The notes beneath the pieces are model-generated. The model was given only the letters and a program-made list of their open reading frames with translations. It ran no database searches and was not told the DNA's origin. From Escherichia phage vB_EcoS_CEB_EC3a: DNA of 44,234 bases. The stretch is from sequence record NC_047812.1; one strand, 5' to 3'. Positions 5,681 to 34,067 of this stretch are shown here, in pieces (positions within the stretch are counted from its first letter, which is position 1; every line of letters begins with the position of its first letter). The position numbers and the translations under genes were made by a program.

Positions 5681-7246
5681 ATGTCTTTAGTATGGGAAGA
5701 AATGACCATTCAGGAAAAGATGGCCGTTAAGGCGATATCAGAACACAGCTTCGAGGGTTTCCTTCGTTGCTGGTTCCAGATTACACAAGGCGAGCGATAC
5801 ATCCCTAACTGGCATCACAAGTACTTGTGCAGAATCATTGATGAGATTATCGCAGGAGATCGCAAGGACACCATCATTAACATAGCACCAGGCAGCGGAA
5901 AGACGGAAATTGCCTCAATCCACTTCCCGGCCTATTCGATGGTTAAGCTTAGGAAGGTGCGCAACCTTAACATCTCTTTTGCTGACTCCCTGGTTAAGCG
6001 TAACTCGAAGCGAGTACGTGACCTTATCAAGTCTCAAGAATTTCAGTCACTCTGGCCATGCAAATTTGGCACCTGCAAAGACGATGAGCTTCAGGTTCTT
6101 GATGAGAGTGGCAAGGTTAGATTTGAGTCAATATCAAAGGCGGCTGGAGGCCAGATTACTGGCGCTCGCGGTGGGTACATAACCGAAACATACAGCGGAG
6201 CCGTTCTTTTGGATGACTTTGACAAACCCGCAGATATGTTATCAGCAGTGTACCGCTCGAATAATCACGTAATGCTTAAAAATACGATTCGCTCACGTCG
6301 AGCCAGTTCTGTAAAAGGCAAAGCGACACCAATCATTTCGATACAGCAGCGGCTTCACGTCAATGACTCAACCTATTTCATGATGGAAGGCGGCATGGGT
6401 ATCGAATTCGATTTGATTAAGATACCAGCATTAGTTACTGAGGATTACCTAGACACACTACCTGAATGGATTAAAGAACAGTTTGAAGAGGATGTCCTTA
6501 GTAGTGAATACATAGAGCGCGATGGAGTAAGGTATTACAGCTACTTCCCTAAAAAGGAGTCAGTCAATGACTTGGTTGCGATGTGGGATAGTGACCCTTA
6601 CACCTTCCTTAGTCAGTATCAACAAGAACCAGTAGCTCTAGGTGGCAACCTTATTAACGTAGATTGGTTCCAGCGCCTTAGCGACACGTTCAGACCTCCA
6701 GCTAAGTACGATTATAGATTTATAACTTGCGATACAGCTATGACTACAAAAAGTTATAGTGACTTCTCTGTCCTTCAATTGTGGGGTTATAAAGATGCTA
6801 AGATTTACCTTATTGACCAGCGCAGGGGGAAATGGGAAGCGCCCGAGTTAGAGGCAGAGTTAATCGATTTCGAGAAGAAATCAAGGGCAACCAGTCAATC
6901 GGATGGTATCCTCCGAAAGATTATCATCGAGAAGAAAGCATCTGGAATCGGACTCATTCAATCAGCAAGTCGAGTCATGAGAACGCCAGTGGAACCTTAT
7001 GTTCCTGATAATGACAAGTTAACAAGGGTGATGAGTGCGCTGCCACAGATTAAGGCTGGTAACGTAGTTCTTCCTGAGTCTGCGCCGTGGTTAAGCGGAT
7101 TGCTTACTGAGATTGCGGCATTTACCGCTGACGACAGCCATAATCACGACGACCAAATTGATACCATGACAATGGCTATCAACCTGGTTCTGAACATTGC
7201 GGATGATCCTAAGTCGAGACTGATGCGCATAGCGGGAATGAAATAG
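5681..7246 (+). CDS. terL: terminase large subunit
   Basis: 521 aa; Walker A-like APGSGKTE near N-terminus; C-terminal nuclease-like acidic region; precedes portal. Confidence 0.85.
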   Translation: MSLVWEEMTIQEKMAVKAISEHSFEGFLRCWFQITQGERYIPNWHHKYLCRIIDEIIAGDRKDTIINIAPGSGKTEIASIHFPAYSMVKLRKVRNLNISFADSLVKRNSKRVRDLIKSQEFQSLWPCKFGTCKDDELQVLDESGKVRFESISKAAGGQITGARGGYITETYSGAVLLDDFDKPADMLSAVYRSNNHVMLKNTIRSRRASSVKGKATPIISIQQRLHVNDSTYFMMEGGMGIEFDLIKIPALVTEDYLDTLPEWIKEQFEEDVLSSEYIERDGVRYYSYFPKKESVNDLVAMWDSDPYTFLSQYQQEPVALGGNLINVDWFQRLSDTFRPPAKYDYRFITCDTAMTTKSYSDFSVLQLWGYKDAKIYLIDQRRGKWEAPELEAELIDFEKKSRATSQSDGILRKIIIEKKASGIGLIQSASRVMRTPVEPYVPDNDKLTRVMSALPQIKAGNVVLPESAPWLSGLLTEIAAFTADDSHNHDDQIDTMTMAINLVLNIADDPKSRLMRIAGMK

Positions 7247-7286
7247 CACAAATTGCTAAACACTAAAGCCACGGATGGCGTATAGT
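7244..7286 (+). promoter_or_regulatory. palindrome-promoter module (TAGCACAAATTGCTAAA, TATAGT 7281-7286)
   Basis: Motif family member; TAG 7244-7246 is terL stop. Confidence 0.6.
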
Positions 7287-7315
7287 TACTTCACACAAAC
7301 GAGAGGAGAAGAAAG

Positions 7316-7648
7316 ATGAAGGCAGTATTTAAAGGTTATAAAAAAGCTGGTTGTTTGGAATTTACTATTGGTAAGATTTATGAGCTATCAACGGCAACTG
7401 AGGCTTTCGGATTCTTAAAAGTGACTGATGACGATGGATTTAATGGAGTAATTATCCCAGGTGACACCTATGATTTCGAGGTGCTGATTCCAGATGAATT
7501 TATCAATAAAAAAAAGCAATTTAAATATTACATTAATGGCGAAGTGGTTACTAAGACAAAGTTCGATGATACGCTGTTATGCGTCAAGGATTTTAAATCT
7601 GATGGCATTGACACATCATCAATCAAGTTCGAAGTAAAATTCGAGTAA
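7316..7648 (+). CDS. hypothetical protein, moron-like insertion between terminase and portal
   Basis: 110-aa ORF with own module upstream and terminator downstream; GAGAGGAG RBS. Confidence 0.6.
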   Translation: MKAVFKGYKKAGCLEFTIGKIYELSTATEAFGFLKVTDDDGFNGVIIPGDTYDFEVLIPDEFINKKKQFKYYINGEVVTKTKFDDTLLCVKDFKSDGIDTSSIKFEVKFE

Positions 7649-13215: not shown

Positions 13216-13606
13216 ATTATCATTAGCAGCAAGGAAATTCGTCGACGATTTGTTGGTAAATGAATTTCCGGTCAGGTATCCAGTTGCGTGGGAGAATTGT
13301 AAGTTTACCCCCCCTGCCGATGGCTCAATCTGGCTTAAGTACGACTATACAGAGGTTGACACCGTAACCTACGGATTAAGCAGGAAGTGCAAATACTACG
13401 TAGGCATGGTTCAAATTTCAGTATTCTTCAGTCCTGGTACTGGAATTGACAGGCCCAGACATATCGCTAATCAATTGGCAGAATCTATCGTTGATGGTAC
13501 AATGCTTGACAGCGGGACCATTTATGAGTCTGGAGTTGTTAACCCCGTTATCAAATCCAAGTCTGGGTGGTTTATCCCGGTTCGTTTTTATGTTCGTCTA
13601 GACTAA
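13205..13606 (+). CDS. putative tail completion protein
   Basis: ORF overlapping previous stop, upstream of major tail gene; GTG start. Confidence 0.4.
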   Translation: MQYELSLAARKFVDDLLVNEFPVRYPVAWENCKFTPPADGSIWLKYDYTEVDTVTYGLSRKCKYYVGMVQISVFFSPGTGIDRPRHIANQLAESIVDGTMLDSGTIYESGVVNPVIKSKSGWFIPVRFYVRLD

Positions 13607-13621
13607 CAAAAGGAAAAATAC

Positions 13622-14278
13622 ATGGCTCATTTATCAAACGGCACCCAGGTGTTCGTAGAAGGCTCTCGCGGAACTGCAATTGACGTAACTGCAATTTCTA
13701 ATGCAGCTAAACCAGTTTTAACCGTATCTAGCGCATCTGGCCTGGCTAAGGGTGACTACCTTCTTTTTACCGCATCCAGCTCAACTCTCCTGAGTGACAA
13801 GCAGGTGCGAGTAACTAAAGTTTCTGGCACGGAGGTAACAGTTGAAGGTATTGATACCTCAAGCACTACCAAATTCCCTGCTGGTTTAACTGGTGAGGTT
13901 GTCAAGATTACTTCATGGTTCGAAGTTCCGTGCGTTCAGGATGTTTCAACTGATGGCGGCGAGCAGCAGTTCGTTAACTTCCAGTGTCTTTCAGACGACC
14001 GTGAACAGCAGATTCCGACTTATAAATCTGCGGTAACTAACACCTTCACCTTTGCTCATGAGTACACTAACCCGGTTTATCCGGTTCTGCGTAACTATGA
14101 TGAGTCAGGCCAGGTTGTTGCTATTCGCCTGTTCGTACCTCGCGCCCAGGAAATGCGCTTGCAGTCTGGCACTATCGCTTTCAACGACACCCCTACTATT
14201 GGTGTTAACGAAATCGAAACGGTATCCATCGCAGTATCAATTCGTGGTCGCCTGTCCTCTGTGGCGGCTGAAGTTTAA
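13622..14278 (+). CDS. major tail (tube) protein (putative)
   Basis: 218 aa ORF followed by strong terminator, immediately upstream of chaperone/tape-measure genes. Confidence 0.65.
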   Translation: MAHLSNGTQVFVEGSRGTAIDVTAISNAAKPVLTVSSASGLAKGDYLLFTASSSTLLSDKQVRVTKVSGTEVTVEGIDTSSTTKFPAGLTGEVVKITSWFEVPCVQDVSTDGGEQQFVNFQCLSDDREQQIPTYKSAVTNTFTFAHEYTNPVYPVLRNYDESGQVVAIRLFVPRAQEMRLQSGTIAFNDTPTIGVNEIETVSIAVSIRGRLSSVAAEV

Positions 14279-14285
14279 AACACAA

Positions 14286-14307
14286 ACCCTCTTCGGAGGG
14301 TTTTTTA
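14286..14307 (+). terminator. intrinsic terminator
   Basis: ACCCTCTTCGGAGGGT hairpin + T6. Confidence 0.8.
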
Positions 14308-14312
14308 TTGCA

Positions 14313-14355
14313 TAGCACTTTTTGCTAAAGCGTTAATCCAATCTTCCTGTATAGT
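14313..14355 (+). promoter_or_regulatory. palindrome-promoter module (TAGCACTTTTTGCTAAAG, TATAGT 14350-14355)
   Basis: Motif family member, T-rich spacer variant; leader TTAACTCATCGAAACGAAA. Confidence 0.6.
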
Positions 14356-14388
14356 TAACTCATCGAAACGAAATGAGAGATTAAAGAA

Positions 14389-14637
14389 ATGAATAACGTT
14401 AAAAACATCATCAAGCTTGCTGCAGTTCTGGTTGCTTTTTATGCAGTGGTTCAGATTGTTAACCCAACTGGTGAGGCTGATGCAAATATCAAGGCAAACA
14501 AATATACTGTTGAGTTCGCTAAAGCTGAGCGAGCATGCCAGGAACTTGTAGGTGGTAAAGTTGACCAAATCATGAAATATGGCAAAGAGGTCTGCAAGGA
14601 CTCGGCTGCTAATATTGCAAAAGAAAACACTAAGTAA
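14389..14637 (+). CDS. small secreted/membrane protein (moron-like) inserted in tail operon
   Basis: 82 aa with N-terminal hydrophobic segment IIKLAAVLVAFYAVVQIV; own promoter module. Confidence 0.55.
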   Translation: MNNVKNIIKLAAVLVAFYAVVQIVNPTGEADANIKANKYTVEFAKAERACQELVGGKVDQIMKYGKEVCKDSAANIAKENTK

Positions 14638-14676
14638 TAGAATACATACTCACAAACAATAAGAGGATTAACAAAA

Positions 14677-14991
14677 ATGGCAAAGTTCAAACTTTCACTG
14701 GCGGCACTGCCAGACTTCAAGCTACCAGTAAAATTCAAGCTGGCTAACGACCAGGATGTAGAGGTTATTTTTACAGTTAAGCACAAGAAGACTTCTGAAC
14801 TTCAGGAATTGCTTAACAAGGAAGACTTGAGCACCAAAGAGCTTATTATGGCAATTGCTTCTGATTGGGATTTGGAAGAGGAATACAACGAGGATAACGT
14901 TAATGAGTTCTCCGACCTGTTCCCAGCTTCAACCGTTGCACTGACCACGGCTTATATGCAAGCACTTGCTGGTCAGCGAGTAAAAAACTAA
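14677..14991 (+). CDS. tail assembly chaperone (gpG-like)
   Basis: 104-aa acidic protein directly upstream of tape measure; slippery heptamer before stop. Confidence 0.7.
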   Translation: MAKFKLSLAALPDFKLPVKFKLANDQDVEVIFTVKHKKTSELQELLNKEDLSTKELIMAIASDWDLEEEYNEDNVNEFSDLFPASTVALTTAYMQALAGQRVKN

Positions 14992-15311
14992 AACGAGCGG
15001 TGTATCTACAGTACCAGTCAGAGCCAACTGATGCCGAACTGGAAGCTATTGGGATGCGCCGCTCTGATTACGAAGACGAAGAGCCTGAAGTTTTAAACTT
15101 CGACGAAAACATGATGAAAGCGTGGGACATTTATTGTTCAATGGCTACGCAGTGGAGAGTCGGAGCTAACGGAGCTACAGGGATGGATTACAACGTGCTA
15201 AATTTCCTCTTTAGAGTGTATAATGTCTCTGAAGAAGAATTGGTGCTCAGCGATTTACGCATCCTTGAAGCTAAGGCTCTTGAGATGATGGATAACCTGA
15301 GAAAAAAATAA
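14677..15311 (+). CDS. tail assembly chaperone GT fusion (via -1 frameshift at 14982-14988)
   Basis: Downstream ORF 15000-15311 is in -1 frame relative to G and lacks an own RBS/ATG. Confidence 0.55.
14982..14988 (+). other. -1 programmed frameshift slippery site A_AAA_AAC
   Basis: Heptamer AAAAAAC in G frame one codon before stop TAA 14989-14991; -1 frame stays open to 15311. Confidence 0.6.
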
Positions 15312-15333
15312 CCCGCTTCGGCGGGTTTTCTAT
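15310..15333 (+). terminator. intrinsic terminator
   Basis: AACCCGCTTCGGCGGGTT hairpin + TTCTATT. Confidence 0.65.
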
Positions 15334-15346
15334 TATGGAGGCTTAG

Positions 15347-18325
15347 ATGGCAACAAATGAATTAGCCGGAATCACACTAGCCGTAGACGTATCTCAGGTA
15401 GACAGGGGTACGCAATCCCTACAGAAGTTCAGACAGGCCAACCAGCAAGCCGCTTCCGGTATTAGTGAGTTCGTCAATGCTGAGCAGGTTGCGAAAAACC
15501 AGGCTAGAGATACCGCTCACGCACTTGCTGAGCAACAAGCATCTTTAGCTAAATTGCAAACTGCTATTGATCCAACTGCGGCAAAGTTCCGTAAGCTGCA
15601 AGAGGCGGCTGTAGGACTTGATAAGGCATTTGCTGCTGGCGTAGTTCCTGATGAGGAGTTTTTCCGATTAGGTGAGGCCCTTGAAACGCAGAACGCAAAA
15701 CTTGCTCGCTCTCGTGCGGCACTAACTGAGGAGGGTAGAGCAGCCGCGCAAGCTGCAAAAGATAAAGCAAAAGCAAAGGCTGAAGCGGATAGGTTCATTG
15801 CATCACTTGAGCGACAGGCTCAAGCAGCGACATTGACGCGTGAGGAGTACTTAAAGTTACAGGCTGCTCAGCTTGGCGTAAGCTCTCAGGCAGCACCTAT
15901 TATTGACAGAATCGCAGAGGCTTCAGAGAGGGCTAATGTTCAATTAGCAAACCAAAGTAAGGCGTTTCTGAGATCAGGATTAAGTGCCGGTCAATACAGG
16001 AATGCTATCAGGATGCTTCCGGCACAGATAACTGATATTACCACGTCATTAGCTAGCGGCATGCCTGTTTGGCTTATTGCAATCCAGCAGGGTGGGCAGA
16101 TTAAGGATAGCTTTGGCGGTATTGGCAACACATTTAGATTCGCGCTTTCAGCCTTAAATCCATTCAATGTTGCTGTTGGTGTTTTGGGTGGGGCGCTTGT
16201 AGCTCTTGGTGTTGGTGCGGCTCAGGCTGAAAGTGAATTCAGGGCGTTAAACTCCGCAATTGCGTTCTCCAACAACTCTACAATAGCATCAATCTCGCAG
16301 GTTAGAGAGTTGGTTAGCTCCGTATCTGATGCTACTGGCGCCACCAGGGGCCTTGTAACCAGCATCGCAACAAGCCTTGTGGAGCAAGGAAACCTTACGC
16401 TAACGCAGATTGACAAGATTACCAAATCGACAGCTAGATGGGCGCAGTTGACAGGTAAAGATGCGAAGGAAATTACTGGTTACTACAACCAGATTGCAAG
16501 CGACCCAATTCAGGGCTTAGTTGATTTGGATAAGCGCTTTAACTTCCTCACTAAGGGGCAGTTGACGACAATCGAAAACCTAAGAAAGACAAAGGGAGAA
16601 GTTGAGGCCGTTACTGCTGCGATTGATATTTTCAGCAAGTCGCAGGAAGCAAACCTTAACGACATTGCAGCGCAGTTAACTCCACTTGAGTTGGCCTGGA
16701 ATGATTTTAGAAAGTACATCTCTGATATCTGGGATGCAATTAGTCGTAGAACGGTTGGGGCGCTTAACCTTTTTGTTGACGTAATCGCCGGAACAATTGA
16801 GCAGATCAGGGTATTCATTAACCAGGGTGATGTGCTGATTGGTGAATTCGTAATTAGCGCAACCCAGGCATTGCAGAACATTCCTGGTCTTGACGGCGTT
16901 GGTGATGATGTTATCAAGGGTCAGCAAAAGATTATCGATGCGGCTAAGAAACAAAACCTTGAGCTAGAAAAGTCTATCAGGGAGCGAGATGCAAGAATCA
17001 GGGAAGGAGAGCTTGGTTACGTTACTCGCAGGGAAAATCAGAATACGAATGAGCAATCGGGTACTGATGAGGAATTTGCGAAAAGGAGGAAGGCACTTAA
17101 GGAAGAGCTTGACGCGATCAAGAAGAATAGGAAAGAGGAAAATGGGAGGGTTAAGGAGCAAAGAGATTTAACAATTGGTTATGAATCTGGTGTCCTAGCG
17201 CTTCAGGCCCAGCTCAAGGTGCTTCAGGAAAATAGGGATATTGGCGCAGTAATAAGCAATGAGCGCAAGCAGTATCTTCAGGAGGAGGCCAAATTCAGGA
17301 TTCTTGAGCAGAGACAACTTGATGGCTCAATTACCAAAGAGCAAGCAAGACTTCTCATTGAAAAGGATAAAGTTCTTGAGTTAGCCAGACAGAAGGCTGA
17401 GCTAGGTGATCAGATTGTTTTGCAGGAGCGAGCTAATAAGTTAGCTGAAGATAACCGCAAGAAGATTCTTCAGATTAACAATGAGGCAAGTAACATTGAT
17501 TTGGGTGCTGGTTTATCATCTCGCGAGCAGCAGAGAGCCAAAGAGATTCAGGCTCTTCAATCCAATCAGGTTAATGCTGGTGGTTCTGTTGATGATGTTG
17601 ATTTTCAGCAATTACTGGAAGCAAGAAAGGAATACTACAAGCAGGAGGATAATCTTAGGTCAGACTGGCAATCCGGTGTAACATCCACTCTCGACGACTT
17701 GACAGAGAAGTACACTGACTACAACCAGATTGCTAAGGACTTAACTGTTGCGGCATTCGATGGAATTACAGAACAGATTACAAACCTTGTAACCACTGGT
17801 GAGACTAATTTCAGAGATTTCACAGCAAGCATCCTCAAAATGATTGCGAAGATTGCAACTCAGTTACTTTTGGTTAAGGCTATAGAATCAACATTAACTA
17901 GTTTTGGCGGTGGGGGAGGTAATGCGTTTGGCTCTTTTGCATCTGCTATAGGCTTTGCTGGTGGCGGTTACACTGGTGATGGTGGGAAGTATCAGCCAGC
18001 AGGTACGGTTCATCGCGGGGAGTTTGTATTCACAAAAGAAGCTACAAGCCGAATAGGTGTCAAAAACCTTTATGCGCTAATGAAGGGTTACGCAAACGGC
18101 GGCGCGGTTGGTGGTCCTTCAGGATATGCAAATGGCGGCTTGGTTTCTGGTGGTTCAGATGTTAATGTTAGCGGAATTACTGTTAACGTCAATGGTGGCG
18201 TTGGTAGCGACCCAGAGCATGCCAAAGCATTGCAGAGCGGCGTCAAGGCTATCGTAGCGGAAGAAATTGCTCAGTCTTTCCAGCAGGGTGGGCGTGCTTA
18301 TGCTTACCTTCGCGGATTCAACTAA
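15347..18325 (+). CDS. tail tape measure protein
   Basis: 992 aa, Ala/Gln/Glu-rich coiled coils, Gly-rich C-terminus, position after G/GT. Confidence 0.9.
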   Translation: MATNELAGITLAVDVSQVDRGTQSLQKFRQANQQAASGISEFVNAEQVAKNQARDTAHALAEQQASLAKLQTAIDPTAAKFRKLQEAAVGLDKAFAAGVVPDEEFFRLGEALETQNAKLARSRAALTEEGRAAAQAAKDKAKAKAEADRFIASLERQAQAATLTREEYLKLQAAQLGVSSQAAPIIDRIAEASERANVQLANQSKAFLRSGLSAGQYRNAIRMLPAQITDITTSLASGMPVWLIAIQQGGQIKDSFGGIGNTFRFALSALNPFNVAVGVLGGALVALGVGAAQAESEFRALNSAIAFSNNSTIASISQVRELVSSVSDATGATRGLVTSIATSLVEQGNLTLTQIDKITKSTARWAQLTGKDAKEITGYYNQIASDPIQGLVDLDKRFNFLTKGQLTTIENLRKTKGEVEAVTAAIDIFSKSQEANLNDIAAQLTPLELAWNDFRKYISDIWDAISRRTVGALNLFVDVIAGTIEQIRVFINQGDVLIGEFVISATQALQNIPGLDGVGDDVIKGQQKIIDAAKKQNLELEKSIRERDARIREGELGYVTRRENQNTNEQSGTDEEFAKRRKALKEELDAIKKNRKEENGRVKEQRDLTIGYESGVLALQAQLKVLQENRDIGAVISNERKQYLQEEAKFRILEQRQLDGSITKEQARLLIEKDKVLELARQKAELGDQIVLQERANKLAEDNRKKILQINNEASNIDLGAGLSSREQQRAKEIQALQSNQVNAGGSVDDVDFQQLLEARKEYYKQEDNLRSDWQSGVTSTLDDLTEKYTDYNQIAKDLTVAAFDGITEQITNLVTTGETNFRDFTASILKMIAKIATQLLLVKAIESTLTSFGGGGGNAFGSFASAIGFAGGGYTGDGGKYQPAGTVHRGEFVFTKEATSRIGVKNLYALMKGYANGGAVGGPSGYANGGLVSGGSDVNVSGITVNVNGGVGSDPEHAKALQSGVKAIVAEEIAQSFQQGGRAYAYLRGFN

Positions 18326-18744: not shown

Positions 18745-19500
18745 ATGTTAAGTCCAAAGTTTGAAAATCAGTTGCAAAGTCTTTTCCCAGGCGAGATTGT
18801 GACTCTAATCCAGGTTGACGGAACCTCATTTGGCTCTCTCGTTTATTCGTTCCACAATGAGAACATTTCATACACGCCAGAGGAAATCATGCTAGCCCAG
18901 ATGAATGGGGAGCCGCTACCAGAGAAGACTATTACATTTCGCGGTGAAGAGTATGGCCCTAGACCTTTCGGTATATCTGGCATCAATATGACCTCTGACG
19001 GCAAGGCCAACAAAGTTACACTAACAGTATCAAACGTAGACCAGCGCATTAGCGCCTTGATTCGAACATACAACGGACTTGTTAAAGCTAAGGTTACCAT
19101 CTGGATTACTACGCGAGATAACATCAATGAAGACGGGAGTATTGCTGATGGAGATTATCGCAAATTCGTTTACTTCATTGAGCGACCTAAGCAGGTTGAT
19201 TACAAAACTGCGTCATTTGAGCTTAGTAGCCCGATGGATATGGATGGCATTTATATCCCAGCGAGACTTGTTCAGTCTGTTTGCTACTGGGCTTCTAGGG
19301 GTTGGTATCGTAGCGGGAATGGGTGTGCTTATGCTGGAAATAGATACTTTAATAAGGATGATGAGCCAGTGGCAGATCCTTCATTAGACTTCTGTGCAGG
19401 AACTGTTAACAGTTGCAAGCTTAGATTTGGTGAGAATAATCAGTTAGATTTTGGCGGCTGCGCTGCCGCAAGCCTTCAGGCTAAAGCCAACCAGAGTTAA
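18745..19500 (+). CDS. minor tail protein (lambda gpL-like) with C-terminal Cys cluster
   Basis: Four cysteines near C-terminus (CYWAS..GNGCAYAG..FCAGTVNSCKLRFG) as in Fe-S cluster of gpL. Confidence 0.7.
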   Translation: MLSPKFENQLQSLFPGEIVTLIQVDGTSFGSLVYSFHNENISYTPEEIMLAQMNGEPLPEKTITFRGEEYGPRPFGISGINMTSDGKANKVTLTVSNVDQRISALIRTYNGLVKAKVTIWITTRDNINEDGSIADGDYRKFVYFIERPKQVDYKTASFELSSPMDMDGIYIPARLVQSVCYWASRGWYRSGNGCAYAGNRYFNKDDEPVADPSLDFCAGTVNSCKLRFGENNQLDFGGCAAASLQAKANQS

Positions 19501-24295: not shown

Positions 24296-24320
24296 AGGCC
24301 CCTTTCGGGGCCTTTTCTTT
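24296..24320. terminator. bidirectional intrinsic terminator between convergent operons
   Basis: AGGCCCCTTTCGGGGCCT hairpin with T-run downstream and A-run upstream. Confidence 0.75.
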
Positions 24321-25291
24321 TAGTAGAAGTTTGGAATAAATGGAAGTGCCATTGATATGTTTGTGTCGAAAGGGAACCGGGCGCCAGTCTGGGTTGAATA
24401 GTTACCTATTACAGAGCCAGGAACAGCCCTAACAGAGCCTCCAGACATGCAAATGCCCTTGTATCGCAAGTTGTTATACCCTCCAGTAACTCTAGTCGTA
24501 GCGCCACATCTAAGAAGCGGGAAGAATCCACCATTTATTGACTGATATACATTGCTTATTTGTATAAATCCACTAAGTACAAATGGTCGCCTAACGCTGG
24601 AGAAAACAATCTGACCAGAGCTATTTGACATTGTAAGACCGGGTCCAGCTACTGGAGGTTCATTCCTGAATATCACCAACTGAACGTAAGTGCTTGCCGC
24701 CACGTCATCTATGCCACCATAGTTTACATCACGGCACCATATCGTACTGCCATCACTCTCCAGAGACACATTTGGGTTATCCCACTTACCAAATGGTATT
24801 CCGCTAACTGGTAGCGACGCTGCCCCGTTAACCTGTATACCTCCAACCCATGCTGCTGACATTAGTCTCGAGTTGCTTGATATAGCAAGGAAGTCAGTTG
24901 AGTTCTCAATGAGTATCCCTGGACTTGATGAAGATGAAGCCGGTAGTATCTCAAAGCAATTCCCAGCAAAGTCAATTATTCGACCTCTGGCACCATTGAA
25001 GTTGCTGAGCGTTATCCTACCAGTGCCGTCATTTACCTTTTGAAACCCGTTCATGTAATAAACTTCGGGTATAACATCATAAGCGTCAACGTGGACCGCC
25101 TTCGTTGGTAGGCAGAAAGCCGTAGAGCCAGGGGACATTGTCAATCCAAAATCCCAAGAACTTGCTGGGGTTGAAAGTCCATTGGTATTTATTGATCCAG
25201 TCACAGCAGGTGCCCTTAACCCTGCCGTAATCTCCATAGCTGGTCTTCCGTCATTGAGGTCAATCAATATACCCTGAGGCATTATTTCCAC
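24320..25291 (-). CDS. hypothetical Ser/Gly/Asn-rich protein co-transcribed with cor-like gene
   Basis: 323 aa ORF; start overlaps stop of upstream lipoprotein gene. Confidence 0.6.
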
Positions 25292-25524
25292 TCCTTACTG
25301 CCGTGATCTGCAACAGAACCGCCGTAACCGCCACCAGTGGCCTTAATTCCATCGTATCGCACATCAACTTCACCAGCTGGTACAATCACACCATTTTTCC
25401 ATTTAGCTACGCACACGCCGTTTGCTTGGGTTGCACACCATCCATCAGGTCGAGGACCTGAAGAACAACCTACCATCATGATTACTGCTGCGGCGATGAT
25501 TGCTGATTTGATTAAGTTAGTCAT
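25282..25524 (-). CDS. cor: Cor-like superinfection-exclusion lipoprotein (putative)
   Basis: 80 aa, signal peptide with lipobox MMVGCSS, Cys/Gly-rich; downstream of tail fiber genes. Confidence 0.5.
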
Positions 25525-25544: not shown

Positions 25545-25606
25545 GTTTCGTTTCGATGTGGTAATAGTATCGAATCCTTGCGATCAGTGTTTAGCAATTA
25601 GTGCTA
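25545..25606 (-). promoter_or_regulatory. palindrome-promoter module, minus strand (TAGCACTAATTGCTAAA; -10 TACTAT; leader TTACCACATCGAAACGAAAC)
   Basis: Reverse complement of 25545-25612 matches module; palindrome TAG is stop of Rha-like gene. Confidence 0.6.
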
Positions 25607-26251
25607 TTTCTTTTCGAGTAACATCTTGATGTCAATGCCGAGATTATTTTCAATCAATCCAGTCAGTGCATCCGTCTTTTCTTTAAGGGCAAAACACTGA
25701 GCTTCATACTTAAATCTTTCCTCCATCTCGTCAGAGCGACTAACCCAGCACTGGCGAGCCTCGCAAGCCAGCATGTCGAGTTTTTCATCGGTATTCTTAT
25801 CCATGAGTAAGATCTCATTTATTCTTTGCTCTGCAACAATGCGCTGACTAAGGTGTGCATTTTGCGCATTAGCCACACCAAGCATCATTCGCACTTCTTT
25901 TAACTCATCAATGCTTACCATCTGGCTGATTACTTCTTCTTGTTTTTTAACTAATTGCTCAAGCTCATGAAGTCGACGGATAACTTTGTGTCGAAGCACG
26001 ACGCTGTAGCCAGTGATTAGCGTTTCGGTGAGTTCCTTGTTGAGTAAAATCTCAGATGTATAGCCTCGATTGTCTGTAAGTAGTTGATAATCATAATGAC
26101 CCAAATCTGGGGCATCGTTATAATGTAACAATTCATTGATCATTTCCTTTGTGTCGCGAACGACGTGATCATGACGTTTCCCGGTTAACTCTGCGATTTC
26201 CTTTGTGCTCATCATGGTTTTTGGTTGTTCTTTGTACAATTCAATGTTCAT
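25604..26251 (-). CDS. Rha-family phage regulatory protein (putative)
   Basis: N-terminal STKEIAELTGKRHDHVVRDTKEMI motif; start at ATG 26251 with AGAGAG RBS. Confidence 0.55.
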   Translation of the reverse strand: MNIELYKEQPKTMMSTKEIAELTGKRHDHVVRDTKEMINELLHYNDAPDLGHYDYQLLTDNRGYTSEILLNKELTETLITGYSVVLRHKVIRRLHELEQLVKKQEEVISQMVSIDELKEVRMMLGVANAQNAHLSQRIVAEQRINEILLMDKNTDEKLDMLACEARQCWVSRSDEMEERFKYEAQCFALKEKTDALTGLIENNLGIDIKMLLEKK

Positions 26252-26315
26252 TTTCATCTCTCTTTGGTTTTGTGATACGAAATTTTCGTAGCACAAGCAG
26301 CACCATTGCCGCCAT

Positions 26316-32078: not shown

Positions 32079-32095
32079 TAGCACTAATTGCTAAA
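32079..32095 (+). promoter_or_regulatory. palindrome TAGCACTAATTGCTAAA in + orientation between two minus-strand genes
   Basis: Motif family member; possible downstream -10 TGTATAAAA at 32119-32127 would read antisense into primase gene. Confidence 0.4.
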
Positions 32096-32120
32096 GTGGA
32101 TTGTATCATCTTTCATGTAT

Positions 32121-32143
32121 AAAAAAACCTCCCGAAGGAGGTT
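32121..32143 (-). terminator. intrinsic terminator (minus strand) after primase gene
   Basis: Reverse complement AACCTCCTTCGGGAGGTT + T7. Confidence 0.75.
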
Positions 32144-33065
32144 AGTCTAGTAATTCGCTTGCTTTGTATATTCGCTTTCTTATGCCTGACTTGAAAAAAT
32201 TATCATCATTTGGCATTACCACATCAAGATTGCGATCGTCAGCAACAGCGAGTAAATCAAAATCGTGGCGAGTACAAGCGACGCGTAACTTGTAGTTTCT
32301 AAGCGCATAAGCAACCATTTCCATGTTGTAGCTGGAGTGGCAAACAAGCACACAGCGGTTGCCAGTAGCAATGTGAACGCGATAGCCGTCAATGAGATTA
32401 TCGACCAGATAAGCGTACTCATCATCTTTAAAGGCGCCAATAATAGAAACAGACTGGCGAGTATAATCTTTTGCAGCATAGCTAACATCTCCATCTTCAT
32501 TGATAAACATTACATTGCACATATCATCTGATATGCCGTCACTATAAGCCATAAAGCACGGTACTGCGTGTATTAGTTCGCCTGATTTAGTCCTGCCAAC
32601 ATCAAAACCAAATTCGCTATAGATACCCTCGTATATACTGAGCGGTGTTGATTCTACTCTTTCCGTCCTTTCCATTATCTCAAGGCATCTTTCGTGGTCA
32701 ATCTGCGCGCCCATTTTATAAAGCTTAGTTCTTGATGCTTGCTTGTTTGCCTTAACTATAACCTCAATTGGTGTTAAGTTCAGCCAGTCACCAAGCAAAT
32801 TCACTGAATCGGCGAAGGACGATCCAGTGCACTTCATGACCCATCCTATACCTGAGTCACTTCCGCATTTCGAACAAACTGCCGCGCCATTTCCTTTTTC
32901 ACTGCCTATTTCGTCGGTAAATCTGAATCTGTCAGTGCCAAGGCAGTATGGGCATGGTCCGTGCTTCTTACTTAGGTGTCTATCATTCCAACCAAGTTCC
33001 TTTGCATAAAATAATTTCCACAATCCGGCCATCTTAGGTATAACTTCATTCTTATCGTAATTCAT
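32142..33065 (-). CDS. DNA primase (zinc-ribbon containing)
   Basis: Cys motif CPYC...CSKC near N-terminus; adjacent to helicase region. Confidence 0.6.
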   Translation of the reverse strand: MNYDKNEVIPKMAGLWKLFYAKELGWNDRHLSKKHGPCPYCLGTDRFRFTDEIGSEKGNGAAVCSKCGSDSGIGWVMKCTGSSFADSVNLLGDWLNLTPIEVIVKANKQASRTKLYKMGAQIDHERCLEIMERTERVESTPLSIYEGIYSEFGFDVGRTKSGELIHAVPCFMAYSDGISDDMCNVMFINEDGDVSYAAKDYTRQSVSIIGAFKDDEYAYLVDNLIDGYRVHIATGNRCVLVCHSSYNMEMVAYALRNYKLRVACTRHDFDLLAVADDRNLDVVMPNDDNFFKSGIRKRIYKASELLD

Positions 33066-33541
33066 TTGCTTAACCCGTGATTTTCGTGAAAGTTGTATTT
33101 TCTCTCTGCTTCAATTCTTACTTTATACGCCTGCTCTGGAGTATCGAAGTTCCCAAGGTGTAGCTGCTTACCGTCAACCTTGATGTGAGCCTTAAATTTT
33201 CCGTGATTTAGCTTTGCCACTCCACAATAACCAGTTGTTGATAAAACGCTAAGCTTGCAATTTCTTGAGTTACCTTGATTTGTTGTTACTCTTAGGTTTT
33301 CTATTCTGTTATCTAATTTGTTATGGTTTATATGATCAATGTAGTCGCCATTTTTAAGTTCTCCATTAAACATCTCCCACACAACTCTATGTACATAAGT
33401 CCTAAAGCCATTAACAGACACTTTGTAATAGCCAGATGTAGATAGTGAGTTGCACTCATCGCCAACCTTAACACGTCTTGCAGTGCTAATCTTCCAATGC
33501 AATTTGCCATCTACATAGTAAAAATAATCATGCCAGTTCAT
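33062..33541 (-). CDS. HNH homing endonuclease with AP2-like DNA-binding domain
   Basis: DYIDHINHNKLDNRIENLR HNH motif; GYCGVAK...GKQLHLGNFDT AP2-like segment. Confidence 0.8.
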   Translation of the reverse strand: MNWHDYFYYVDGKLHWKISTARRVKVGDECNSLSTSGYYKVSVNGFRTYVHRVVWEMFNGELKNGDYIDHINHNKLDNRIENLRVTTNQGNSRNCKLSVLSTTGYCGVAKLNHGKFKAHIKVDGKQLHLGNFDTPEQAYKVRIEAERKYNFHENHGLSK

Positions 33542-33593: not shown

Positions 33594-34067
33594 TTACTCT
33601 TTAGCTTTTCGTGCGGCTTCGTTAGCTGCCTTGATCTTTCGCCATGAGCGACACTCTGGTTTAGTTGCTAGCTCAGCCTCAGTAACAACACGCAGCATAT
33701 GACGCTTCTTGCAACGTAGAGTTAGCGGTTTCCCGTTACCGTCGAATTGCAGATCTGGTCGGCAGAATGTAGCGCGAAAACCTTCTCCATTTCGCTTATA
33801 GTAGTTGTGCGACAGCTGGGCGCCGCGCGCAGAAATCATCCCACGCTTAAACCATTCTTCTACAGCCTGAGGTGTCACCTTTAACTGCTTTGCGATATTT
33901 GCCTTTGTGCCGAAGAAATCAAGAACAATCTCCAACCGTGCGCGCAACCCAGCCCTTACCTCGTCTTTTAAAACGTAGTAGCCTGAAGGTCGTTTCCGTT
34001 GTTTTTTGTCTTCAGTACGAATGGTTCCGTTGTTCCCGTTAATTGTTCGCTTGTCTACTGCATTCAT
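33594..34067 (-). CDS. putative HTH DNA-binding regulator
   Basis: Basic protein with helix-turn-helix-like NIAKQLKVTPQAVEEWFKRG segment; divergent from helicase gene. Confidence 0.4.
   Translation of the reverse strand: MNAVDKRTINGNNGTIRTEDKKQRKRPSGYYVLKDEVRAGLRARLEIVLDFFGTKANIAKQLKVTPQAVEEWFKRGMISARGAQLSHNYYKRNGEGFRATFCRPDLQFDGNGKPLTLRCKKRHMLRVVTEAELATKPECRSWRKIKAANEAARKAKE

Follow-up and report, generated by a model that had tools for sequence, protein, structure and literature searches.

A small gene for a predicted envelope protein at an exchangeable site in the tail operon of a T1-like coliphage

The genome record of Escherichia phage vB_EcoS_CEB_EC3a (NC_047812.1; the whole stretch of 44,234 nucleotides is referred to as the window) carries a small open reading frame (ORF) of 82 codons within its tail operon, between the gene for the major tail (tube) protein and the tail assembly chaperone genes G and T. 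A sequence-only reading had singled this ORF out as a small secreted or membrane protein with a promoter of its own, a possible exclusion factor or moron. The limits given there for the ORF were exact, including the ATG start on the + strand, and its placement between the terminator of the major tail protein gene and the G/GT genes is borne out by the Pfam assignments of the neighbours, the fold of the terminator and a slippery site (Table 1). The phage is a virulent, T1-like, Rtp-related siphophage (Drexlerviridae, Braunvirinae). Positions 13600–15350 share 91–95% identity with numerous complete Escherichia phage genomes of this group, including 2725-N35, JeanPiccard (BASEL Bas02), the vB_EcoS-12210I group (Veterinaerplatzvirus), IME253 and DTL, and the window, about the length of one genome, is collinear with phage Rtp.

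Table 1. Features of the locus and copies of the promoter module, with positions in the window (E, E-value; pI, isoelectric point).
Feature	Position	Strand	Basis or remark
Major tail (tube) protein gene	13622-14278	+	Pfam Phage_tail_3, E 1.4e-68
Intrinsic terminator after the tail-tube gene	14284-14309 (hairpin 14284-14303)	+	Terminator scan, RNA fold
Upstream promoter element ATAGCACTTTTTGCTAAAGC	14312-14331	+	Contains the palindrome TAGCA-N5-TGCTA
-10 hexamer TATAGT	14350-14355	+	18 bp past the 20-mer
Conserved leader TAACTCATCGAAACGAAATGAGAGATTAAAGAA	14356-14388	+	Shine-Dalgarno GAGAG at 14375-14379, 9 nt before the ATG
82-residue ORF	14389-14637	+	ATG start, 82 codons, reading-frame translation
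Predicted Sec-type signal peptide or signal anchor (codons 1-32)	14389-14484	+	Sequence reading and hydropathy
Basic C-terminal domain (codons 33-82 and stop)	14485-14637	+	pI 9.0, hydrophilic, 50 residues, conserved Cys50/Cys69
Gap between the ORF and gene G	14638-14676	+	39 nt, unstructured (fold -1 kcal/mol, z 0.22)
Tail assembly chaperone gene G	14677-14991	+	Pfam Phage_TAC_4, E 6.5e-33
Tail assembly chaperone gene T	15000-15311	+	Pfam DUF1799
Next intrinsic terminator, between T and the tape measure gene	15310-15333	+	Terminator scan; fold -12 kcal/mol
Module copies	1412, 1915, 2369, 3089, 3831, 7244, 14313, 32079, 34081, 36582	+	Pattern scan
Module copies	25606, 26365, 43218, 44048	-	Pattern scan

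The tail-tube gene, 92–94% identical to its counterparts in Rtp, AugustePiccard and JeanPiccard, is closed by an intrinsic terminator with an 8-bp stem, a UUCG loop and a U-run (fold −11.5 kcal/mol, z −4.8). A terminator stands at the equivalent position in T1, LL5, KarlJaspers, KLPN1, AKS96, Rtp and TR1/TR2. On the other side of the ORF, the terminator scan and RNA folding showed neither a hairpin nor a terminator in the gap before G. Gene G ends GTA AAA AAC TAA and includes a −1 slippery heptamer, A AAA AAC, at 14982–14988; as a −1 slip at this heptamer enters the T frame, the label ‘G/GT’ used in the earlier reading is correct, and the records of LL5 and KLPN1 annotate a joined G/T frameshift product. 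The GC content of the ORF (0.402, vs 0.442 for the genome) is about one standard deviation low, at the 15th percentile of 249-nt windows. Rfam, searched over 14000–15400, gave no RNA family, the sole match being rsmX at a chance-level E of 0.13.

The site directly after the tail-tube terminator is a lineage-specific, swappable cargo hotspot. Five other Drexlerviridae lineages, represented by Tlsvirus LL5, Hanrivervirus KarlJaspers, Webervirus KLPN1, Tunavirus phi2457T and T1, and Rogunavirus AKS96, have only a terminator-bearing gap of 73–115 bp between the tail-tube gene and G. The ORF, missing from all five, is thus a Braunvirinae-specific insertion, in agreement with the earlier description of it as an insertion into an otherwise lambda-like tail gene array. 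In Braunvirinae the slot opens each time with one copy of the standard promoter module of the family and a conserved leader. In Rtp the terminator, the TAGCACTTTTTGCTAAAGCG element and the leader (...ATCGAAACGAAATGAGAGATTAAAGAAATG) are all shared, but the gene that follows is a different one, rtp34, whose product of 128 residues begins MKAIIAIMATLLLAGC and has a classical lipobox (LLAGC). Homologues of rtp34 occupy the slot in MM01, RobRod40 and AugustePiccard, and TR1 carries there a 126-residue lipoprotein that is 31% identical to rtp34 (E 4e-14). Sequence comparison shows no relation between the 82-residue family and rtp34 (BLASTP E 0.09).

TR2, from the genus of TR1, has an unannotated, very hydrophobic two-helix ORF of 46 residues (1359–1499 of the TR2 stretch examined) between the module and a 56%-identical homologue of the 82-residue protein. 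The 46-residue ORF is present also in TR3, Rao1 and CY1, and its occurrence at another locus in phiA2-1 (OR861626.1, 32135–32272) indicates that it moves between such sockets. A variant of the small protein with 88 residues is found in ACG-M12. When about 87 Braunvirinae records were collected by their chaperone gene, 80 carried the 82-residue family, five (from four phages) rtp34 and at least one the TR1 type.

The flanking tail genes are 92–99% identical between phages with different cargo, which argues that the cargo is dispensable for building the tail. Moreover, since an unrelated lipoprotein takes its place in Rtp, MM01, RobRod40, AugustePiccard and TR1, the 82-residue product is non-structural, and the synteny check proposed earlier reveals no universal structural gene. 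By its predicted targeting every cargo seen in the slot is an envelope protein, and in both of the larger cargo families two cysteines have been retained in the portion that is exported.

The ORF is a genuine gene with purifying selection on its protein sequence. Over eight alleles, the pairwise ratio of nonsynonymous to synonymous divergence (dN/dS) is 0.07–0.31, with synonymous divergence reaching saturation. The protein was found by tblastn in 80 phage records, as a single copy in each, and a search of 5.8 billion proteins returned 39 clusters, all of close relatives and all on phage-sized contigs.

Judged from its residues, the N-terminus is a textbook arrangement of a signal peptidase I substrate, with an n-region MNNVKNIIK, an h-region LAAVLVAFYAVVQIV and a c-region NPTGEADA. 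Lysines at positions 5 and 9 precede a hydrophobic core of 15 residues, which is followed by an N25–P26 break and by A30-D31-A32 ahead of N33; the best 15-residue Kyte–Doolittle mean, 2.55, falls on the segment LAAVLVAFYAVVQIV. Ala32, at position −1, is almost invariant, position −3 is Ala or Thr in most alleles, and the invariant residues include N25, P26, N33, Y39, F43, C50, G55, K57, Q60, Y64 and C69. The protein sequence contains neither a lipobox nor a twin-arginine motif, and residues 1–32 have no cysteine. These features agree with the earlier prediction of a small secreted or membrane-targeted protein with a hydrophobic N-terminus. The C-terminal part should face the periplasm, whether signal peptidase I sets it free or an uncleaved anchor keeps it at the inner membrane, and the two conserved cysteines fit this oxidising compartment. 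An AlphaFold2 model built from 16 sequences has three helices, two of them in the C-terminal part (30–54 and 57–81), and is a weak model with a mean predicted local distance difference test score (pLDDT) of 62.8.

The promoter module that the sequence-only reading had located at 14313–14355 (TAGCA-N5-TGCTA ... TATAGT) is present and recurs far beyond chance, its 20-mer being found four times in the window at ≤3 mismatches vs 0.01 expected. A looser pattern gave 14 full modules in the window, all of them intergenic and co-oriented with the next gene, with the form aaaTAGCACnnnTTGCTAAA(c/g)-N18-TATAGTTAcc.CATCGAAACGA..GGAG..ATG; across T1-family copies, the −10 region is written TATAGTTA and the leader CATCGAAACGA. 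The modules head small-gene clusters at both genome ends, the helicase gene, the Rtp45-type lipoprotein operon and the phrog_14592 gene. T1-family genomes have about 14–20 copies each (T1 about 18). The same leader follows most of the copies, and follows the module also in Rtp, C130_2 and Cronobacter phage leN.

The architecture of the module is rigid. In 31 of 38 copies (window, Rtp and T1) the 20-mer and the −10 hexamer are separated by 18 bp, the distance from TTGCTA to TATAGT is fixed at 22 bp, and there is no usable −35 hexamer. A sigma-70 scan called no promoter at the module upstream of the ORF or at the other copies. Reading TTGCTA as the −35 of a sigma-70 promoter was rejected, as a spacing of 22 bp is too long for a −35/−10 pair. 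Likewise, a sigma-54 promoter (TGGCAC-N5-TTGC) was rejected by inspection for TAGCAC-TTT-TTGC, where AG stands in place of GG and the spacing falls 2 nt short. The element is also unlikely to be a symmetric operator bound by a dimeric phage repressor, since its flanks are asymmetric (AAA on either side) and it is oriented with the gene in every case.

From the −10 hexamer, transcription would be expected to start near 14362, to run through the ORF into G/GT and to end at the terminator at 15310, and up to that point G and T are probably co-transcribed with the ORF. Because no terminator follows it, the ORF looks like the first gene of a promoter–ORF–G–GT unit rather than an autonomous cassette. 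The earlier claim of an own promoter and independent expression is therefore right about the module directly upstream, but this is the standard Drexlerviridae module (at least 14 copies) and the unit would continue past the ORF. The term moron, in the Juhala/Hendrix sense as given in PMC3594210, is apt in so far as the gene is extra relative to collinear relatives; it lacks, however, the terminator of its own and the deviant composition, and since the phage is virulent the prophage sense of the word probably does not apply.

In T1, KarlJaspers and phi2457T, the gap between the tail-tube gene and G carries the module reversed, facing the tube terminator, so that a forward promoter is no general need of G/GT expression and instead accompanies the cargo. 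This bears on the view that the product takes part in the structure or assembly of the tail, or that the ORF is incidental and the promoter is there solely so that G/GT and the tape measure gene are transcribed again past the strong tail-tube terminator. We consider this view very improbable. The promoter does also feed G/GT in the absence of a terminator after the ORF, and the module copy at 7244 heads a gene that PHROGs lists as ‘virion structural protein’; but an export signal is hard to square with cytoplasmic tail assembly, and five Drexlerviridae genera lack the gene, while Rtp-type phages with near-identical tails have the lipoprotein instead. In addition, the protein sequence is under purifying selection, and three phages do without a forward promoter in the gap.

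Some further copies of the module are worth recording. In T1, copies lie at 18847 (−) and 15083 (−), and in the KarlJaspers and phi2457T stretches the reversed copies are at about 1765–1785 and about 1752–1772, respectively. Some copies fire straight into a terminator hairpin or run antisense into late genes; in the window, one such copy, at 32079–32135 (+), lies between the tail-fibre and primase genes. Such hairpin-facing or antisense copies might give very short RNAs or act as insulators. At 7244–7648 (+), between the large terminase and portal genes, the module heads the 110-residue phrog_14592 gene, which makes this a second promoter-led unit within the late region.

The upstream element resembles the binding site of the host activators MarA, SoxS and Rob (marbox), for which the consensus sequences gcannwwntgnnaaa (PMC12052159) and AYnGCACnnWnnRYYAAAY (PMC3709825) have been published. 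ATAGCACTTTTTGCTAAAGC matches the first exactly, in forward orientation, and the second at 18 of 19 positions, position 19 being mismatched. Across the window there are 12 exact matches to the first consensus vs 0.97 expected, and 15 matches to the second at ≤1 mismatch vs 1.03 expected. The marbox scan pattern gave 14 matches in Rtp, 17 in 2725-N35 and 20 in T1, where about 0.5 would be expected, and a few of these matches are without the ATAGCAC context of the full module.

Furthermore, among 41 copies from the window, Rtp and T1, variation falls at the N, W and Y positions of the consensus. The positions that the search pattern left free follow the consensus: position 1 is A in 39 of the 41 copies, positions 8 and 9 are free, position 10 holds A or T and no other base, position 13 is G throughout, and at position 14 only C and T occur. 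Position 19 alone departs from the marbox consensus, usually breaking it.

The geometry agrees as well. Class II marbox promoters have a forward site that overlaps the −35 region, with its centre at −36 to −55 (PMC12052159), and the micF marbox lies near −41 and reads CACT-7N-AAA (PMC8811837). The module is forward, is centred at about −40 from the predicted start and reads CACT-TTTTGCT-AAA. In addition, 14312–14330 agrees at 15 of 19 positions with ATGCCACGTTTTGCTAAAT, the marbox of the mar promoter chosen for structural work (PMC8279559).

A reader of the module encoded by the phage itself was considered and rejected: the helix-turn-helix protein at 33594–34067 (−) is Cro-like and not AraC-like. 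No AraC-type protein was found in the phage, the tblastn search with a MarA sequence being a weak negative. A near-identical module (box, −10 and leader) occurs in Hungariovirus C130_2, in the RB49-type Cronobacter phages leN and Cronuts and in a few others, preceding small genes at about 1201–1261 (C130_2) and about 1201–1263 (leN) of the stretches examined. The spacer is not conserved in the C130_2 and leN copies, and a module common to unrelated phages with an unconserved spacer argues for a reader on the host side. Full-text literature searches returned no mention of the module motif, nor of marbox- or Rob-dependent phage promoters.

On these grounds, the 14–20 promoters of each T1-family genome may be class II MarA/SoxS/Rob sites, at which these stress activators of the host would bring in RNA polymerase in place of a −35 hexamer; the slot may belong to a set of several sockets, flanked by modules, that serve for the exchange of small envelope proteins; and unrelated enterobacterial phages may share the trick. 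We regard this combined proposal as possible but doubtful. It would cover the early-region genes, the Rtp45-type exclusion operon and the gene for the 82-residue envelope protein, and the constitutively abundant Rob would most plausibly be the activator.

As to what the protein does, T4 Spackle (gp61.3) and Imm invite comparison: both are small, are exported or lie in the membrane, come from a virulent phage and stop superinfection once adsorption has occurred. We tentatively propose, as a reading that is plausible without being assured, that the ORF is an accessory cargo gene, driven by the module, whose product acts in the envelope and excludes or disarms incoming phage after receptor binding. 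The Sec signal would place the basic, helical, two-cysteine part of 50 residues in the periplasm, and the protein would act as an accessory factor in the envelope of the infected cell. Its likeliest role would be at a periplasmic or inner-membrane step that follows receptor binding, in a mode akin to HK97 gp15, T4 Imm and T4 Spackle rather than to receptor masking. HK97 gp15, a small protein of the inner membrane whose gene lies next to those of the tail chaperones, prevents genome entry in a manner that depends on the tail but not on the receptor (PMC3594210). As it is the nearest precedent by position and by kind, exclusion or protection after adsorption is favoured with modest confidence.

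A factor of the Cor/Llp/Rtp45 kind would instead bind the outer-membrane receptor from the periplasm and so keep further phage out and spare progeny from being bound by cell debris. The likeness is real in that a virulent siphophage here encodes a small protein predicted to be directed to the periplasm, the operon of the exclusion lipoprotein likewise starts with a promoter of this type, at 25606 (−), and the slot of Rtp holds a lipoprotein. The 82-residue protein, however, has no lipobox and gives no match to PF24052, the family of the Cor/Llp/Rtp45 exclusion lipoproteins, in Pfam to E 1. Moreover, the window already encodes an Rtp45-family PF24052 lipoprotein of 80 residues at 25282–25524 (−), beside the receptor-binding protein, and the mechanism by which Rtp45 excludes at LptDE has been solved (PMC12685063). 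The cargo allele is also independent of the terminal receptor. JeanPiccard (LptD) and IME253 (FepA) share the same 82-residue allele, and Rtp and AugustePiccard (LptD) carry the lipoprotein, so that LptD-type phages have either cargo (receptors from PMC8594841). With its own Rtp45-family lipoprotein present and one allele found in both LptD and FepA phages, receptor masking is improbable.

The product could also protect or tune the cell wall and lysis, either by inhibiting a tail-borne or lysis enzyme, much as Spackle does, or by modulating the timing of lysis from the periplasm. In being small, helical and exported, and in coming from a virulent phage, it is broadly similar to T4 Spackle, and from the promoter-proximal position one may infer an advantage in timing. 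Nothing Spackle-like was found among the PDB fold matches, however, of which none reached E 0.001, and the gene is distant from the lysis cassette, placed at about 39.2–40.4 kb by collinearity with the annotation of 2725-N35. We judge this alternative to be decidedly unlikely.

A target in the host or in a competitor is unlikely too, although several observations are in keeping with it. An accessory factor of this sort might block the import of colicins or nutrients, counter an envelope defence, or alter the lipopolysaccharide or the envelope. Variable module-flanked phage slots typically hold adaptive ORFans (the PeSL concept, PMC2839356), the cargo of this slot appears always to be envelope-targeted, and the 46-residue peptide turns up at a second locus in phiA2-1, as mobile accessory genes do. 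Against this, Pfam, PHROGs and NCBIfam revealed no similarity to anti-defence or modification proteins (the PADLOC defence library was not searched), and nothing indicates a particular target.

Several results weigh against our proposal of exclusion after receptor binding. The family is annotated only as ‘hypothetical’, and its PHROGs match, phrog_22925, is of unknown function. The 82-residue protein matched nothing in Pfam (to E 1) or NCBIfam, and a 16-sequence profile run against 1.84 billion representative proteins recovered only its own cluster, with no homologue beyond Braunvirinae. Foldseek searches of the PDB and BFVD gave nothing below E 1, with the weak model (pLDDT 62.8) as the query. 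In comparison with the distant TR2/ES alleles, the proportion of nonsynonymous differences (pN) is 0.145 in codons 1–32 and 0.39 in the remainder, with a proportion of synonymous differences (pS) of 0.53. The hydrophobic segment is thus better conserved than the mature part, which is unusual for a disposable signal peptide and makes an uncleaved signal anchor a possibility.

The tape measure protein raises a further point against it. This protein has about 921 residues in rtp34-type phages, where a central segment is missing, vs about 991 in phages with the 82-residue family, and the database counts for the long form and for the small protein agree (81 vs 80 records). A coupling between cargo and tape measure was nevertheless discounted, because linkage confounds the association and because it is contradicted by ACG-M12 and ECH1, where the tape-measure segment is 99% identical but the small protein only 49%.

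The word-indexed search of 5.8 billion proteins likewise gave Braunvirinae copies only, and the YebO-like family, to which HK97 gp15 belongs, produced no Pfam match to E 1. As the AlphaFold2 model is weak and the Foldseek search empty, no structural analogy is drawn, including one to Spackle. The literature on virion proteomics and on transcript maps of T1-like phages yielded nothing bearing on the gene. The protein is a new, narrowly distributed family within the familiar category of phage accessory envelope proteins.

The slot is a tractable variable locus in coliphages that are well used, including BASEL Bas01/Bas02, Rtp and DTL, OzMSK and TR1/TR2, the last four being contaminants from fermentation and laboratory settings, and near-identical tails here carry alternative exported proteins. 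If the slot proteins exclude phage after adsorption, they would add a mechanism to that of the receptor-masking lipoproteins, with relevance to the design of phage cocktails. If the module needs MarA, SoxS or Rob, infection by the T1 family would be tied to the host regulon for antibiotic and oxidative stress. The promoter module is a more surprising result than the protein itself.

Elsewhere in the window, the operon at 24320–25524 (−), with its module at 25606 (−), combines the 80-residue PF24052 lipoprotein with a DUF6453 protein of 323 residues, an Rtp44-type receptor-binding candidate. A Rha/antirepressor-like protein (phrog_8235, Phage_pRha) is encoded at 25604–26296 (−) in this virulent phage, and an HNH endonuclease gene lies at 33062–33541 (−) between the primase gene and that of the Cro-like regulator. 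Among the database records, two GenBank entries, ‘Pseudomonas phage PsgS01F’ and ‘Campylobacter phage A110b’, share >90% identity with these coliphages, the former having the same length as Escherichia phage vB_EcoS_UALMA_PCEc3, and the protein cluster P0036, labelled Nitratidesulfovibrio liaohensis, comes from a 46.7-kb contig. These three entries are probably contaminants or carry mislabelled hosts.

Five known systems invite comparison, together with the two T4 proteins. Like the gene for HK97 gp15, the ORF encodes a small protein, here of predicted envelope location, within a lambda-like tail operon, near the chaperone genes, and is missing from close relatives. HK97, however, is temperate and its gene is a moron with its own terminator and deviant GC content, whereas the present phage is virulent and the gene has no terminator and an ordinary GC content; the HK97 gene lies between GT and the tape measure gene, that of the window between the tail-tube gene and G, and the two are unrelated in sequence. 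Rtp45, Cor and Llp are likewise small periplasm-facing proteins of virulent T1- and T5-like siphophages with the same promoter type (PMC12685063); the 82-residue protein differs in having neither lipobox nor family match, in lying far from the receptor-binding gene and in an allele that is not linked to the receptor.

The product of rtp34, in Rtp, MM01, RobRod40, AugustePiccard and TR1, shares the slot, the terminator, the promoter and the leader, is exported and has two cysteines in the mature part. It is nevertheless unrelated in sequence, and the lipoproteins of 126–128 residues contrast with a domain of 50 residues that would be soluble or anchored. T4 Spackle and Imm differ in that neither appears among the PDB fold matches (none at E 0.001) and neither is indicated by a Pfam match, no direct pairwise comparison having been made.

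The PeSL cassettes of RB49-type T4-like phages consist of a stem-loop and a strong early promoter that flank variable ORFans, so that recombination among the repeated regulatory units can swap the cargo (PMC2839356). The terminator hairpin and the module similarly stand at the edge of a variable small ORF, and the RB49-type phage leN has a near-identical module; here, however, such a unit is found on the upstream side only and not downstream, and the phage family is a different one. Finally, the module shares with class II marbox promoters such as that of micF the match to the consensus, the forward orientation, a centre near −40 and the absence of a −35 hexamer, and differs from them in that the phage copies hold in common a −10 region and a leader that a marbox does not explain, with position 19 off the consensus.

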